DNA of 64,000 nt from Ostreococcus lucimarinus (lineage: Eukaryota): NCBI GenBank assembly GCA_000092065.1, contig CP000583.1; one strand, 5' to 3'. Shown here piece by piece: positions 5,606 through 16,671 of the stretch. The notes beneath the pieces are model-generated. The model had not been told where the DNA came from and searched no databases. It was given only the letters and a program-made list of their open reading frames with translations. The translations under genes were made by a program, and so were the position numbers. The stretch's first letter is position 1. Each line of letters starts with the position of its first letter.

Positions 5606-6100
5606 ATGCCGACCGCCGCCGACGCCGACGCCGAACCGCGCTTCGACGACGTCACGGGCGAAGCCCTCAACGTCGCCGCGCTCGAACTCCAGCGTCGCGC
5701 GACGCAGAACGACTACGTCGCCGCGCACGCACCGAGCGAAGATTCACCGTTACGTCGCGTCCCCGCCGTCGACGTCGCGCCTGGACGGCACAAGTACGTC
5801 CTCACGCAGCTCGCGATCGGCGACGAAGCCGCGCTCGTCGTTCGCGCGTACGCCGGATGCGCGTACCACGCGAATAATTTTGAGCTGTTGACGCGCGAGT
5901 TGGCGCGACTCGGCGTCGACGCGACCGGCCGCGTCGTCGGCGGCGGTCGATGCGAACGCGACGACGCGGCGAAGACGATCAAGGTGTACGGGTACAGTAA
6001 AACGTTCGGGCGCACGCCGGGGTGTAACGAACGCGCGTGCGCGATGATTCAAGAGGCGTTTACTGGATACCAGGCGACGTGGAGCGACGACGGGTACTGA
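5606..6100 (+). CDS. PHPT1: 14-kDa phosphohistidine phosphatase (Janus/Ocnus family, PHPT1-like)
   Basis: ...GRHKYVLTQL...GGGRCERDDAAKTIKVYGYSKTFGRTPG...YQATWSDDGY aligns with PHPT1 (KYVLIRV...[28 protein letters not shown]...YEVTWANDGY). ATG at 5606. Confidence 0.75.
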   Translation: MPTAADADAEPRFDDVTGEALNVAALELQRRATQNDYVAAHAPSEDSPLRRVPAVDVAPGRHKYVLTQLAIGDEAALVVRAYAGCAYHANNFELLTRELARLGVDATGRVVGGGRCERDDAAKTIKVYGYSKTFGRTPGCNERACAMIQEAFTGYQATWSDDGY

Positions 6101-6260: not shown

Positions 6261-8229
6261 ATGGTGCCCGCATTGGCATCGCGCGCCGAAGCGCGGCACA
6301 CACCGACGCGCGCGATGCCCGCTCGCGCGCGCCGCTCGATCGAAACCTCTCGCGCGCGCGAACTCCTCCTCGCGATCGACGAATCGTTCGCGAGCCCCGA
6401 GGCCTTCGCGACCGCGCGCTTCGATCCTCGCGAAGATGCTGAATGGTAAAGGGCGTTCGCCGCGCGCGCGCGCGGCGCGAGCATTGACGACGTCGTCGCA
6501 CGCGCGCAGGCTCCTCGTGAAGCGCGCGTTCAACAGACGCGCGTTGGAGACGCACCCAGACAAAGGAGGCGACGCGGACGCGTTCCAAGCGATGTACGAG
6601 GCGTTTCAAGAGCTCAAACAAGCGTTTCTCGATGGCTTCTCGGAATTCGCGAAGTGCATCGAATCGGCGCCGGCGAAGGCGAAGGCGAAGGCGAAGGCGA
6701 AACGAACGATGGTAGACGCGCCAGAACTCATGGGTAAGCGACGGACGATTCCACCGTACGAGTTCTTTCAAACCGCCGCTGAACGAGACATTCCGTTCTG
6801 GAAAATTGAGTTGGCGGCGTCGGGCAGAGCTCGCTGCACCGGCTCGCGCAAGTCCCTCGGCAGCGTCGGTCGCTGTCGAAACACCAATGAAGGATCGAAG
6901 GTGGATCAGCCGAGAAGCGTGGGTCCCGGTCCCGGTCCCGGTCCCGGGTCATCGAGAGCGCTCGTCGCCGACGTGTTCGGAATCATCAAGAAGAACGCTG
7001 TGCGCGTGGGCTTAATGGATCCAGAATCTGGCGCGTACTGCCGATTCGTTCATTTGCGATGTTGGCGTGTGCCTCAGGCGGTGTGGTACAATCTTCCGCA
7101 GTACCCCGACGATACGACTGAGTATAGCGTCGATGAGTTCAAAAGACGCTTGGTCGATATGGACGGCGTCGTCTTCGTCGGGTTGAACAAACTTTGCGAT
7201 GAAGACATCACGCTCGTCGCCGAACACGCGATGAATCAGGAGGCGTGGGCGGCGTTCAATCAGAAGAAATATGTCGCCGCTCGAGCTGCTGGCCTTCCGT
7301 CATCGCGGGTTCAACTTCTTTCGAAAGACGAAATCAAAGTACTGCAGAAACTAATGTCGAAGGCGACGTCTTTAGTGCAAGAACCAGAGCAAGACGAACC
7401 GCTCGCCGCGGTGACGAAGCAGGAATCAAAACCGGAACCAAAACGAACGGACCACGATGAGTACGACGTCGTGACTGATGACGACGAACACGAAGATGGC
7501 TTGCAAGTGGCGCCGAATGTCGGCACCGCGATCGCCGTGCAGAAACCAAAAGAGGAGAAGCCACCACCGAAGATTTTGATTCCCGTCCCTGGCGAAAACG
7601 GCGCAATCGCCAACTCACTTCTTCGCGACAATTCCAAACCCATGACGTTCGTGCTGACGGGAATTTTTCCGGATCTCGGAGGCGATCGAATCGGTCTGAT
7701 GCAAGGCAAAGACATGGCGGAAAAGCTGATTCAGCGGTTTGGAGGCGTCGTGCGGAGCGCGGTTTCAGGCGCAACTGATGTTTTGCTCGTCGGCGAAGAG
7801 CCAGGCGTTTCGAAACTATCAGCTGCGCGCACGAAAGCGAACTGCAAAGTTCTCAATCTCGAACACATCCTCGACATGATTCACGGGCGCTCCATTGAAG
7901 GGAAACGGTTGCAAATTGAAAGATTCAGCACAGGTTTTCATGGAAATTCGTTAGCGTACGATATGACGCGAGCCGAATTGGAAGAGCTACGGACGGGAGC
8001 CAAAGCGCTTCCTTCGACGATGAAAACAGAGGAGCCACAACTTCTACCATCGTCCAAGTCGACAACGCGTAAGCGCAAAGCTCTTCCTTTGTCCACGAAA
8101 GACGAAGCGCAAAAGAATTTGACGTTACCCGCACCTGATAAGCCGCCGCGAAATAAGAAGCCAAAACGCTCGCCGAAAGCGCCCGTGCGAAGCTCGCGTC
8201 GTCTCGCCGCACTGACGAACGCCGCGTGA
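6261..8229 (+). CDS. J-domain (DnaJ-like), PARP-type zinc-finger-like and BRCT-domain protein, two exons (6261..6445 and 6510..8229)
   Basis: Splicing a 64-nt intron restores a J-domain: helix I/II ...FATARFDPREDAEW|LLVKRAFNRRALETHPDKGGDADAFQAMYEAFQELK, with an HPD motif. The PARP-type finger-like block is FWKIELAASGRARC...YCRFVHLRCW. The BRCT block FVLTGIFPDLGGDRIGLMQGKDMAEKLIQRFGGVVRSAVSGATDVLLVGEEPGVSKLSAARTKANCKVLNLEHI is RFC1/LIG3/PARP-type. ATG at 6261 (6315 is an alternative); there is a PGPGPG linker and a K-rich C-terminal tail. Confidence 0.55.
6446..6509 (+). other. Spliceosomal intron (64 nt, GTAAAG...CAG, branch-like cattgac)
   Basis: ORF 6141..6449 stops at the TAA embedded in GTAAAG, and the next ORF is in another frame. 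Joining tg|...|g recreates Trp and a canonical J-domain helix II (DAEWLLVKRAFNRRALETHPDK). Confidence 0.55.
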
Positions 8230-11854: not shown

Positions 11855-12002
11855 GCGTCGTCGCGTCGCGCGTCGTCGCGCGTCGCGCGTCGTCGCGCTC
11901 GCGGCGCGCGCCGCGCGAGGCGCGTTCTGACGCCGTCGATGCGTCGACGCGTCAAAAAAGTGCCATCGAACGAATCGTCGCGCCAGACCGACGCGCGCCG
12001 GC

Positions 12003-14671
12003 ATGTTCGGCGACGCGGTCGCGGTGAGCGGCGCGATCGATCCGACCGCGACGATCGGCGCGCGCGCGGCGCGGGCGAACGCGCGAGACGGGACGGAAGG
12101 GACAAAACTTGAGCTCCCGCGATTGGATGATTTTCGCGACGAAGAGAGCGCGCGGCGGTTCACGCGCGCGAACCGATGGTTGAGCGTGGACTTGCTGGCG
12201 TTTCCGGTGCGTGGGCGCTCGGCGGTGCGACGTCGCGCGCGAACGAAGGCGAAAGAGGTGGACGAAGGAAGGAAGACGACGGATGGATGGATGCAATCGG
12301 CAATCGAGGTTGTTACAGAGCGCGAAGAAGGGGGGGACGAGCGCGAGAACGACGACTGACGAAACGGTGCGCGACGCGATAGGTGGTGCGAATAAATTGG
12401 GTGGTGGCGCTCATGGCGACGACGACGCTGTGGGGATTCACGATCGGCGTGTTGTCTCGTGAAGAGGCGGCGGAGGAATTTTTCGGCAAGGCGACGCTTT
12501 GGATTTCCAACAACTTTACGTGGTTTTACACCTTGACGCAGAACGCGTGGATTTTCGTGGTGATTTTCGTGCTGTTTCGGAAAAGGTACGCAAACATCAA
12601 GCTCGGACAGCCGGATGATAGGCCTGATTATTCCGATCTCGTGTGGTTCACGTTGATTTTCACCACGGGGCTCGGGACGGGGATATTTTACTTTGGAGTG
12701 AGCGAGCCGATGTACTACTATCGTGATGATTCCAAACTTTTAGGAACAGCAACCAACTATATAGCGAAGATCCCGTTCATGAACGATGATCAAAGGGCGA
12801 ACATGGCGATGTTTGTCACTTTTTTGCATTGGGGTTTGCACGGTTGGGCGACGTACATCTTGGTCGCGCTGACGCTCGGCGTCGTGCATTACCGACTGGG
12901 CAGGCCGCTGACGCTTCGCAGTGCGTTTTATCCCATCGTAGGCGATTACGTCAACGGGCTGTTCGGCGACTTGATTGACTCGATGTCCATCGCTTGTACG
13001 ACGTTTGGGTTGTGCACGTCGCTCGGTTTGGGGGCGAGCAGTATCAATACCATCTTGCACCGCATGAGCGCTTCGATTCCTGACGACGACGACAACACGA
13101 AGTCGGCCATCATTTGGGGCATCACCGCGCTCACTACGGGTGCACTCGTAAGCGGGCTCCACCGCGGGGTTATCACTTTCGCCATTGTCGCCTTCTCAAT
13201 TCTACTTGCGCTGATTATGATTTTGTTCATGCTTGACAACACGTGGTACCTTGCAAATTCGTTTACGCAGCAAATCGGAACATACTTGCAGTACGTGATT
13301 CTCGGCGGATTCGACAATGACGCCATAGCGCAGCTGAACATAGAGTTTACGCAGAACGACACGCACTTGTGGGGTGCGCAAGGGATAAAACAATTAGTGG
13401 AAACGGCCTTGAACAAGACGCTTGCCGATCCGACGACGTATTACTCGAGCTCGCCGACTTCGTTCATGGATACGTGGACGGTATTTTACTGGGCTTGGTG
13501 GATCACTTGGGCGCCGTTCGTAGGAATGTTTTACGCTAAAATTTCACGTGGTCGCACCATAAGATCGCTTATTCTGGTCGGTATGTTTGCGCCGATGTTT
13601 TTGGGTTTCTTTGCTATTTCCGTCCTCGGATCGCTTGGTATTCGAATGCAACGCATCGCGGAATTGGCGCTCGGCGCTGCACCAGATTGGCAGAAAGGAG
13701 TTGTGAACTGCGGTGCCCTCGGGTATTTAGAAAACACACCCGTGAGTGCGGACGCAAAAAAGTTGGCCTCGGAGCTCGGAGTCTACGCCTTGGCGTGTCG
13801 AAAATCGACGGATAGAATTTTGGACATTCTTGAGCCTTACAAAAACTTGACGACGCTTTTACAAACCTTAGTTCTTTTGGGTGTGATTTTGTTCTTCGTC
13901 ACCTCTGCGGATGCGGGCGCGTTCGTGGACGACAAAATCGCCGCGAACGGCATGGAAAATCCTCCTGTTCTTCAAAAGGTGTGGTGGAGCATCACGCAAG
14001 GCGCCACCGCGCAGGCGTTGCTAAGCTCCACTAAAAACGGTTTGTCCACGCTTCAATCGGTGAGCATTTGTGCCGCTCTGCCGTACACGTTCGCGCTGAA
14101 TTACATGTGTGTAGCACTCTTTCGCGCTATGGACGAAACGAATGAGGATCCAACATACATGAAAATGCGGAAAGGTTTCAGCACATCCATCGTCGACGTG
14201 TTTGAGAATTTCCACAAGGCTGACGGAACGATGGCGACGAAACAAGCGTCGACAAAGGATCGCTTGCTGTTACTATTGCGCACAATTTTAAATCCGAGAA
14301 GGTCCTTAACGACGGCGGGCTTGGAACTCTTCAAGCCTCTCAGGCTGAGCGTGTTAAGTTTCGGTTACGGGCTGGTGCATCTTTTGTGGATCTTGCTCCT
14401 CGCGTTGTCGCCGTTGGACAAAGGCACGCACACGTTGGCGTGGTTGATGTACTTGATTTTCACATCAATCACGGCGGCCGTGCGTTATAATCTTAGGAAA
14501 AAGTGGTACATCATCGGTAACTTGATGGATGACTTTTTCGTGTGCTTTTTCTTTTATCCATTCGCGTTGGCGCAAATGCAGCTAGAGGTCGAGAGTCACA
14601 CGGGACGCGCCGTCGAGCACGGAAGAGCCAACTTTGTTCCGGCAAACACGATGAAAGCCGCCGACGACTAG
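12003..14671 (+). CDS. BCCT-family (betaine/carnitine/choline) transporter, two exons (12003..12206 and 12383..14671)
   Basis: The BCCT hallmarks are ...WFTLIFTTGLGTGIFYFGVSEPMYYY... across multiple TM segments. The ORF track starts the main ORF at GTG 12383, exactly after a candidate AG acceptor. An upstream ORF with a true ATG (12003) ends at a phase-0 GTGCGT donor (12207). Splicing yields the continuous TM1 sequence ...WLSVDLLAFP|VVRINWVVALMATTTLWGF. If that intron is wrong, the first ATG of the main ORF is 12413. Confidence 0.7.
12207..12382 (+). other. Spliceosomal intron (176 nt), GTGCGTGGG...GACGACTGACGAAACGGTGCGCGACGCGATAG
   Basis: Phase 0 on both sides. The GTGCGT donor and the GACTGACGA motif 29 nt before the AG match the other introns in the window. 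Confidence 0.55.
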
Positions 14672-14745
14672 TCATCGTGCAGCGCCACTTTGTAAAATTA
14701 TGCTGCAAACAAATAATATGTGTAACTACATCGTTCCGGTACAAT

Positions 14746-16671
14746 TTAAGCAGCGACGGAGACCCGACGCGACGACCTGCTTGGCGTTCGAGACGGGGTC
14801 TTTTTCGGCGTACGAGACGGGGTCTTTTTCGGCGTTCGAGACGGGCTCTTTTTCGGCGTTCGCGATGTCGCCGACTTGTTAGATATCTTTCGCGCGGGAG
14901 TTCGCGCACGCGCCGCAACTTTCGCCTTGACGTCCGCCGAACTTCCCCAGTTGGCGGCGTAAATGTCGTTGAACTGTTCCTGGCACATGTGCACGAAATA
15001 CATCGCGCAGTGCACTGGAATGGCGTACGGCAGCGCGGCGCGGAAACCCGCCATTTTGTGGAAACCCAGAAGTCCGACCATACTGCCAATGATCATCGGA
15101 TGCGGCACCACGTTGTAAGGGAACCCGTGCACGAAGTTGGGTTTGACTTTTCCGAGTTCGACGCCAAAGTACGTCTGGTCGATGCCCAGCGCCACCGTGG
15201 CGGCGGTGCTCAGACCGTATCCACACACGATCATCGCGATGGAGACGATGTCAAACTCGAAATGCTTCAGGTACGTCAGCCCGAGATGGGTCAAAGCCAG
15301 CGATTTCCAAAACATCACGTTGCGCTTGAACATCCCAAAGTTGATTCCCTCGCGCACGTGATAGGTGGCGATGTACATGCAATAGTGCGTGTACGACGTG
15401 ACGGCGAAGAAAAAATACGGGTGAATGTACTTGCCCGCGGCGTAAATCGCAGCAACGCTTGCGATGTTATTGATGCCAGCGTATTTGGATACGAGAAATG
15501 CACCATTAGTGACGGCGAGGACCATGAACGCCATAAATCTCCAGAAACCAGTCGGCTTGATGGTGTTCAAAAACAGCTTGCGCGCGACGGTGTTGTACAT
15601 CACGGACAAGTGTAACAGCGCCTCGCCGAACGGTCCAAAGCACTTGGGATAGACGCAGTAATGTAACTTCATGGTAATGCGTCGATCGGGATTCGCCACC
15701 GGTCGATCAGCGATGACGTGGATCTCGCGATGGAAATCAAAGCCGACGACGTCGCCGTCGGATAAGCACCCGCCGCTTCCTTCTTGGGTGAAAATAGTTT
15801 CAACCTTGACGTTTTCATTCACCGCGAGCATGCAGCGGTACAAGAAGCAGAACGGATACACCGCCCACGGGCCATCGATGTGTTCCATGTAAAATACCGT
15901 GTCGGAATTATTGTTGTGATGGGACGAGGCGACGTAAATCTCATTCATCCCGTACACGGGTTTGACGACCCACGCGTCCGGGCGGAAGCGCTCGGCAAAC
16001 ATCTTCTCCACCGGCGCCGAGTGCGCGATGTGCGTGAACGCGTCTTTCTCCTTCGGAGCCAATCGCGTGTGCCACCAGTGCGCGGTGCAACTGCGATCCG
16101 GGTCCTCCTCGGTGACGAAGCGTTCGATGGTTTTCATCGCCGCCCGATCCTCCGCACTCGTCAGCTTTCCCCGCACCACGTAATTATGCGCCACGATCCA
16201 CGACAAGAAGCTCTCGTCCATGTGCATCACCGCGTCCAGGCACAGCGGCAGCAAATAAAACGTGTGTTCGACGAGCAGCGCCGGCCAATTCGTAAACTTC
16301 ATGTACGACGCCTGATACGTCTTCTCCCCCGTCGCCGCGTGCGCCGCCTCCTGCCCCGCGTACGCCGCCGCGAACACCCCCATCATCCCCCACATCGTCA
16401 TCCCGCTCGCGCACATCGCCCCCGCCGCGCGCGCGATCATCGCCCACGCCACCGTCGTCGCCACTTTCACTCCCTCGCCCGCGTTCGTCGCCATCGTCGC
16501 CGCCGCGTACGCCCAAAACGCGCCTCGCGCGCTCGCCGCGCCCCATCGCGTCTCCAGCATCGCCATCGCGCTCGCCATCGCCACCGGCGTCGTCACCAGG
16601 TGCAGCGCGACGTTGAACGAGTTCGAGTGGTACCTTCGGAACTCCGTCGCCGTCGCCGCGAACGTCTTCAT
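14746..16671 (-). CDS. Membrane protein with a C-terminal phospholipid/isoprenylcysteine methyltransferase-like (PEMT/ICMT family) domain, a basic (T/S)PKK-repeat tail and a novel N-terminal domain
   Basis: ...FVHGFPYNVVPHPMIIGSMVGLLGF... matches the PEMT/ICMT motif (G-x-Y-x3-RHPMY-x-G) and is flanked by several TM helices. The tail is TPKKSPSRTPKKTPSRTPKKTPSRTPSR, encoded by 30-bp DNA repeats at 14760-14880. ATG at 16671. Confidence 0.45.
   Translation of the reverse strand: MKTFAATATEFRRYHSNSFNVALHLVTTPVAMASAMAMLETRWGAASARGAFWAYAAATMATNAGEGVKVATTVAWAMIARAAGAMCASGMTMWGMMGVFAAAYAGQEAAHAATGEKTYQASYMKFTNWPALLVEHTFYLLPLCLDAVMHMDESFLSWIVAHNYVVRGKLTSAEDRAAMKTIERFVTEEDPDRSCTAHWWHTRLAPKEKDAFTHIAHSAPVEKMFAERFRPDAWVVKPVYGMNEIYVASSHHNNNSDTVFYMEHIDGPWAVYPFCFLYRCMLAVNENVKVETIFTQEGSGGCLSDGDVVGFDFHREIHVIADRPVANPDRRITMKLHYCVYPKCFGPFGEALLHLSVMYNTVARKLFLNTIKPTGFWRFMAFMVLAVTNGAFLVSKYAGINNIASVAAIYAAGKYIHPYFFFAVTSYTHYCMYIATYHVREGINFGMFKRNVMFWKSLALTHLGLTYLKHFEFDIVSIAMIVCGYGLSTAATVALGIDQTYFGVELGKVKPNFVHGFPYNVVPHPMIIGSMVGLLGFHKMAGFRAALPYAIPVHCAMYFVHMCQEQFNDIYAANWGSSADVKAKVAARARTPARKISNKSATSRTPKKSPSRTPKKTPSRTPKKTPSRTPSRSSRRVSVAA
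14760..14880. repeat. Three or more tandem 30-bp repeats (cgagacggggtctttttcggcgtt) encoding a basic TPKK/SR tail on the minus strand
   Basis: Direct reading of acgagacggggtctttttcggcgtacgagacggggtctttttcggcgttcgagacgggctctttttcggcg. Confidence 0.8.

Follow-up and report, generated by a model that had tools for sequence, protein, structure and literature searches.

A Two-Exon Gene of Ostreococcus lucimarinus Predicted to Encode a Protein with a J-Domain, a PARP-Type Zinc Finger and a BRCT Domain

A Probable 64-nt Intron and the Two-Exon Gene Structure

The gene analyzed here lies on the plus strand of a 64,000-nucleotide (nt) stretch of the genome of Ostreococcus lucimarinus CCE9901 (GenBank assembly GCA_000092065.1, contig CP000583.1), and this whole stretch is called the window. 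The gene is split by a segment, 6446..6509, which is most likely a real intron. Its spliced product of 616 amino acids (aa) is predicted to contain a J-domain, a PARP-type zinc finger, and a BRCT domain, and this module order is supported by sequence profiles and structural models. As judged from the sequence, the public O. lucimarinus reference model misses the intron and lacks the first exon. The two-exon structure amends the deposited gene model XP_001416548.1 / A4RTS5. Taken as a whole, the two-exon gene with its J-domain, PARP-type finger, and BRCT domain, for which a mechanism of Hsp70 targeting to DNA nicks or breaks is inferred, is considered probable. The gene structure is as follows.

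6315..8229, plus strand: gene; two exons split by the 64-nt intron 6446..6509; spliced product of 616 aa
6315..6445, plus strand: exon 1; 131 nt in length, beginning at the conserved ATG and encoding MPARARRSIETSRARELLLAIDESFASPEAFATARFDPREDAE and the first two bases of Trp44; it covers helix I of the J-domain, the linker between helices I and II, and the start of helix II
6446..6509, plus strand: spliceosomal intron, phase 2; 64 nt, with the donor GTAAAG, a branch-like TTGAC, and the acceptor CAG
6510..8229, plus strand: exon 2; it ends at the stop codon TGA 8227-8229 and makes up the bulk of the reference model XP_001416548.1

Without splicing, the locus contains two open reading frames (ORFs) in different frames, one from 6141 to the TAA at 6447-6449 and the other from the ATG at 6436 to the TGA at 8227-8229. 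The frame of exon 1 is open up to the TG at 6444-6445. Excision of 6446..6509 joins the two into a single continuous reading frame, in which the codon split by the intron is TG plus G6510, encoding Trp, followed by LLVKRAFNRRALETHPDK / LLVKRAFNRRALETHPDKGGDADAFQAMYEAFQELK. The intron begins with GT (6446-6447) and ends with AG (6508-6509), the excised stretch being GTAAAGGGCG...CATTGACGACGTCGTCGCACGCGCGCAG, and the A of its branch-like TTGAC is at 6487, 22 nt before the 3' end. The original prediction had placed a 64-nt intron with the donor GTAAAG here, stating that its removal restores the frame and that its retention puts a stop codon in the frame of the J-domain. Its coordinates and arithmetic are exact, and the stop codon is the TAA at 6447-6449.

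Of the possible GT..AG pairs spanning no more than 400 nt, just three keep the frame open from the ATG at 6315 to the stop codon ending at 8229. Only 6446..6509 retains the full exon-1 peptide. The other two candidate introns, 6386..6509 and 6386..6536, were ruled out, as they remove the stretch between helices I and II, including the Trp at the junction that is kept in relatives.

The intron was compared among seven metagenome contigs and the contig L001, which fall into two lineages. The protein of the sister lineage shows ~94% identity to that of O. lucimarinus. Each of the seven metagenome contigs has one of two intron forms, 64 nt or 63 nt in length. The 63-nt form, found in the sister lineage, has the structure GTAACG...TTGAC...CAG and differs from the 64-nt form by indels of -2 and +1 nt. 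Frame-breaking indels near the junction are confined to 6446..6509 and are absent from the adjoining exons. Exon 1 counted from the ATG at 6315 is 131 nt long and in frame in both lineages, with indel-bearing flanks; the first 131 nt of exon 2 are free of indels and differ between the lineages by four substitutions. The peptide covering helix II, the HPD motif, and helix III is identical in both lineages up to the residues after DGFS. In the sister lineage, a TGA within the intron interrupts the frame of the HPD motif 22 codons before HPD, with no ATG between the two. Because of this in-frame TGA and the lack of an ATG before HPD, only splicing allows the conserved region of helix II and HPD to be translated from an ATG. 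The spliced ORF of the sister lineage is 632 aa in length and free of stop codons.

An N-terminal segment ahead of helix II is present in all aligned relatives (50/50), and the column corresponding to the Trp at the junction is occupied by W or F. The O. tauri model OUS42964.1 contains an equivalent N-terminus. In the O. tauri orthologue, the only intron lies elsewhere, inside helix III (L002 3431..3484); it is 54 nt in length and has the structure GTGAGT...TTGAC...CAG. When this intron is removed, OUS42964.1 is reproduced at 559 of 585 positions. The orthologues P0003 to P0006 are intronless, single ORFs. Since the O. tauri intron is placed differently and P0003 to P0006 have none, the intron 6446..6509 is specific to its lineage, and the intron position in this gene has thus shifted between close relatives. 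The comparative evidence shows the predicted two-exon structure.

Several results weigh against the spliced form and its complete J-domain. A search of metagenome contigs with the pattern of the spliced junction gave no matches, and the seven metagenome contigs that include the start of exon 2 all represent genomic DNA with the intron in place. With the Pfam DnaJ profile (PF00226), the unspliced ORF scores 20.7 bits and the spliced protein 19.6 bits, a difference of 1.1 bits in favor of the unspliced form. A hidden Markov model (HMM) of the family, built without this protein, gives 57.6 bits to the spliced N-terminus, 51.4 bits to exon 2 alone, and 50.7 bits to the unspliced ORF. With a shuffled exon 1 the score is 54.3 +/- 1.9 bits, and exon 1 adds ~6 bits, a modest gain (z ~1.7 against the shuffles; range ~1.7 to 2.9). 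In BLASTP, the match of the exon-1 peptide to the O. tauri N-terminus is not significant (E 2.1), and for this reason the case for the intron is not rested on exon-1 homology. The structural model of the J-domain gave no significant match with Foldseek.

If the existing annotation were correct, there would be no intron, the start codon would be the ATG at 6436 (MLNGKGRS...), and the 597-aa protein would have a J-like segment without helix I. This is what has been deposited as XP_001416548.1, it needs only one unbroken ORF, and the DnaJ score and the junction search described above are on its side. It is nevertheless very improbable. The ATG-initiated frame is wrong in the 63-nt region of the sister lineage, where the in-frame TGA precedes HPD with no intervening ATG. 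The peptide specific to the no-intron form, MLNGKGRSPRARAARALTTSSHARR, has no match in the O. tauri orthologue, the helix-I segment is present in all relatives, and the frame-breaking indels fall precisely within 6446..6509. These observations argue for the spliced form.

Start Codon and Existing Annotation

Upstream of the conserved ATG there is another ATG in the same frame.

6261..6314, plus strand: possible 5' extension or 5' untranslated region; in-frame ATG at 6261, not conserved

The original prediction started the protein at this upstream ATG. In the sister lineage (L001, L004, and L008), it is replaced by TCG, and there are indels of 5, 6, and 3 nt between it and the next ATG. Several indels between the lineages within the 134 nt on the 5' side of the ATG at 6315 are not multiples of three. 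Because the ATG at 6261 is unconserved and indels that are not multiples of three separate the two ATGs, the start codon is likely the ATG at 6315, giving a protein of 616 aa, and the upstream start is not adopted.

The unspliced ORF carrying the HPD motif, which the original prediction had described as beginning with MLNGKGRS..., is identical to the deposited 597-aa protein (XP_001416548.1 / ABO94841.1 / UniProt A4RTS5). The entry A4RTS5 is titled "predicted protein" or "BRCT domain-containing protein". The first 25 residues of XP_001416548.1 are partly translated from intron sequence. Other automated calls are 545 aa in length and start with MYEAF at 6592, downstream of HPD, with the loss of this motif; calls that start past HPD drop the functional core of the J-domain. 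Neither the spliced 634-aa protein nor the spliced 616-aa protein has an exact entry in a collection of 15 billion sequences.

J-Domain

The J-domain spans the intron, and its parts are as follows.

6348..6630, plus strand: J-domain; spans the intron
6348..6380, plus strand: helix I of the J-domain
6438..6552, plus strand: helix II of the J-domain; coordinates across the intron
6553..6561, plus strand: HPD; in the loop joining helices II and III
6574..6630, plus strand: helix III of the J-domain

The HPD motif is invariant in the 51 aligned family members, which speaks for a working Hsp70 interface. With Pfam DnaJ, the spliced protein scores 19.6-19.7 bits, below the cut-off of 27.8; the domain is called at E<=0.001 in 39 of the 51 family members, with a best value of 1.7e-11. 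The family profile matched 42 sequences in PDB, all of which are J-domains or J-like domains (best E-value 4.5e-8). The AlphaFold2 model is helical at residues 11-21, and the predicted local distance difference test score (pLDDT) of this block is about 85. The sequence profiles align helix II, HPD, and helix III only, not helix I. Helix I is divergent and resembles helix I of viral T antigens. What had been described as a textbook J-domain is therefore retained in part: HPD is invariant and helix II, HPD, and helix III are aligned, but helix I departs from the textbook form and exon 1 adds the ~6 bits mentioned above.

PARP-Type Zinc Finger

The second module is predicted downstream of the J-domain.

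6790..7257, plus strand: PARP-type zinc finger with a long insertion; based on the region profile, AlphaFold2, and Foldseek
6835-6837 (Cys), 6874-6876 (Cys), 7051-7053 (His), and 7060-7062 (Cys), plus strand: zinc ligands; columns invariant or nearly so
6922..6948, plus strand: (GP)n run within the insertion of the finger

Numbered from the Met at 6315, the ligands are C153, C166, H225, and C228, and their spacing is C-x12-C-x58-H-x2-C. The usual spacing in zf-PARP is C-x2-C-x28-30-H-x2-C. A lineage-specific insertion of ~50 residues, including the (GP)n run, separates the ligands of the O. lucimarinus protein. The Pfam zf-PARP profile (PF00645) gave no match to this protein even at E<=10, and the miss is attributed to this insertion. 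The same profile was called in 5 of 11 and 33 of 51 relatives (best E-value 1.6e-9).

The profile of this region matched 15 sequences in PDB, exclusively zf-PARP, with E-values of 3.1e-10 for PARP1 and 4.4e-3 for LIG3. The AlphaFold2 model of the finger region has a pLDDT of 80. In the Foldseek search against PDB with this model, the top 13 matches consisted entirely of PARP1 entries or chains that include Zn1 or Zn2, with probabilities of 0.92-0.99 and a target-normalized template modeling score of up to 0.62; matches beyond the top 13 are noise. R150, aligned to Arg18 of PARP1, is nearly invariant, and R209, aligned to Arg34, is invariant. The zf-PARP-like block noticed in the original prediction is thus recovered as a PARP-type finger by the family profile, AlphaFold2, and Foldseek alike.

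Other features were observed in and around the finger. One diatom member retains the canonical CxxC of the PARP finger; the Mamiellales members have long insertions. The motif IPPYEFF is encoded at 6751..6771, just upstream of the zinc finger. Its family consensus is PSWEFY, and AlphaFold2 models it as a helix. At 6673..6702 there is an in-frame repeat, (GCGAAG)n, encoding AKAKAK; it is strain-variable, and the version in the sister lineage is longer and GK-rich. The GGTCCC-type repeat at 6922..6948, encoding GPGPGPGPG, is also strain-variable, and the metagenome variant P0034 has one extra GP unit.

BRCT Domain and C-Terminal Region

The third module and the C-terminal region contain the following features.

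7573..7890, plus strand: RFC1/LigA-type BRCT with an N-terminal extension; based on profile and single-sequence matches in PDB
7573..7620, plus strand: N-terminal extension of the BRCT, ILIPVPGENGAIANSL; conserved
7642..7890, plus strand: BRCT proper
7915..7959, plus strand: C-terminal motif IERFSTGFHGNSLAY; family consensus I.SFS.GY.GNGLA
8068..8226, plus strand: Lys/Arg-rich C-terminal tail (RKRKALPLS ... KKPKRSPKAPVRSSRRL); read from the sequence

The score with Pfam BRCT (PF00533) is 19.9-20.0 bits, just below the cut-off of 21.3. BRCT is called at E<=0.001 in 50 of the 51 relatives, with a best value of 2.7e-10. As a single sequence, the BRCT matched only RFC1 (2ebu and 2k6g; 9.2e-5) and LigA (1l7b; 3.2e-3) in PDB, and the family profile of the BRCT matched RFC1 at 2.7e-13. 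The BRCT of LIG3 is absent among the PDB matches of both the single sequence and the family profile. By these matches, the domain is classified as an RFC1/LigA-type BRCT, not a LIG3-type one; of the RFC1/LIG3-type BRCT proposed originally, the RFC1 half holds and the LIG3 half does not.

At the TG, GK, and SK positions of the alignment with RFC1, T427 is nearly invariant, and G428, K444, and K479 are invariant. The TG, K(R), and SK positions are equivalent to the residues that bind 5'-phosphate in human RFC1. The motif IERFSTGFHGNSLAY matched no known domain; its residues I513, S517, and G519 hardly vary among 51 diverse sequences. The basic tail resembles a nuclear localization signal, which suggests a nuclear location.

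Family Distribution

The family was searched for with a HMMER scan of 1.84 billion cluster representatives. With a threshold of E<=1e-30, the scan yielded 452 representatives; no fewer than 150 reached E<=1e-75, and most of the latter span most of the profile. Word-indexed protein searches recovered few relatives; it is the full HMMER scan that revealed the size of the family. Members include XP_002500752.1 from Micromonas commoda (UniProt C1E312, "J domain-containing protein") and OUS42964.1 from O. tauri. The member from Pyramimonas obovata is a transcript-derived protein with an additional PHD finger, and that from the diatom Stephanocyclus meneghinianus has two BRCTs. A SAP domain is present in 3 of 51 family members. 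As a separate observation, variants that add modules are found among P0277, P0274, and P0278, with a PHD finger (Pyramimonas) or a second BRCT (diatom-type).

The orthologues have the same module order on single ORFs, on one transcript, or in accepted gene models. A search for the architecture in related genomes had been proposed as a check, and the architecture does recur there (Pfam calls DnaJ, zf-PARP, and BRCT in 39, 33, and 50 of 51 relatives, respectively). The suggestion that it is lineage-specific is not borne out by the 452 representatives, which include sequences from Micromonas, Pyramimonas, and a diatom. The architecture is thus old, widespread in algae and protists, and not specific to Ostreococcus. 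No paper on this domain combination turned up in full-text literature searches with the domain names taken together. The family is large, conserved, and apparently undescribed.

HMM searches of the spliced protein had been proposed as a check on its domains, with a failure to call zf-PARP or BRCT counting against them. With Pfam, DnaJ and BRCT are sub-threshold and zf-PARP is not called, so that, taken literally, the check speaks against the domains. The Pfam misses on this protein are regarded as a problem of sensitivity and not as a refutation, given that each of the three domains emerges from family profiles and structure.

Proposed Function

J-domains with HPD stimulate ATP hydrolysis by Hsp70. 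PARP-type fingers recognize DNA nicks and ends, and the BRCT region of RFC1 binds 5'-phosphorylated DNA ends. The best inference, drawn purely by analogy with these systems, is that the protein would be a targeting adaptor that delivers Hsp70 activity to strand interruptions such as nicks and gaps. A nick or break would be recognized in two ways, through a grip of the zinc finger on the DNA backbone and through binding of the 5'-phosphate end by the BRCT, as in RFC1. At the site of the lesion, the J-domain would trigger ATP hydrolysis by Hsp70, which could then clamp, remodel, or remove proteins on the damaged DNA. As a tentative extension, the whole family may be a dedicated nick or gap sensor and a conserved chaperone adaptor, in which Hsp70 output replaces ADP-ribosylation. 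If so, algae and other marine protists would have a branch of the DNA-damage response that works through chaperones. The J-domain is fused here to two modules otherwise known from break sensors (PARP1, LIG3, RFC1, and LigA), and the proposed mechanism, if true, is a simple and testable route for Hsp70 to DNA strand interruptions. Ostreococcus and Micromonas are tractable in the laboratory and suitable as test organisms.

The three-domain protein may be real and its J-domain may serve some purpose other than bringing Hsp70 to lesions. It could be a structural factor at replication or repair intermediates, or its J-domain could serve a single constant partner, as those of polyomavirus T antigens do, or the finger could bind something besides breaks. 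Two features of the finger weigh against PARP1-like break recognition. The base-stacking loop of PARP1 Zn1 (Pro42-Met43-Phe44) is an insertion relative to the family profile, and the ligand spacing, C-x12-C, is unusual. Because of the shortened stacking loop and the odd ligand spacing, break recognition could differ from that of PARP1, and a different DNA or chromatin target is possible. The invariance of HPD in all 51 aligned members points instead to a working Hsp70 interface, and conservation extends to the phosphate-contact arginines of the finger and to the phosphate-pocket residues of the RFC1-type BRCT. Such alternatives to the Hsp70-targeting adaptor are considered unlikely.

Genomic Surroundings

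The gene is flanked by two others in the window, and the same gene order is observed in the sister-lineage contig L001.

5606..6100, plus strand: phosphohistidine phosphatase/Ocnus-family protein; the protein of the ORF 5606..6097 is identical to XP_001416547.1
8304..10145, minus strand: PPIL2-type cyclophilin

The possibility that the locus belongs to a low-GC outlier region of the chromosome was rejected locally, as the GC content around the gene is 0.63. Elsewhere in the window, the 4-kb block 12001..16000 has a GC content of 0.537, against 0.57-0.68 in the rest.

Comparison with Known Systems

The N-terminal sensor of PARP1 has the same finger fold, the same Cys/Cys/His/Cys positions, and the arginines whose equivalents (Arg18 and Arg34) are kept in the algal protein, and both proteins have, further downstream, a BRCT of the same broad class. 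In contrast to PARP1, the algal protein has one finger instead of two and lacks Zn3, WGR, and the catalytic domain. Its finger has the C-x12-C spacing, the insertion of ~50 residues, and a shorter base-stacking loop, and a J-domain replaces the enzymatic output. The zinc finger of LIG3 is also similar, as the region profile aligns with it over the whole domain including the C-terminal helices (E 4.4e-3), whereas the BRCT of LIG3 is not among the relatives of the algal BRCT. For the BRCT, the closest solved relatives are RFC1 and bacterial LigA, with matches in the N-terminal extension and at the TG, K(R), and SK positions. Unlike these proteins, the algal protein has no AAA+ clamp-loader or ligase module, and its DNA binding is predicted. 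Among class C (type III) J-proteins, neither DNAJC2/ZRF1, nor polyomavirus T antigens, nor E. coli CbpA has a PARP-type finger or an RFC1-type BRCT. From its predicted domains, the O. lucimarinus protein belongs to class C of the J-domain proteins, its targeting unit being an unusual one of the DNA-break-sensor kind.

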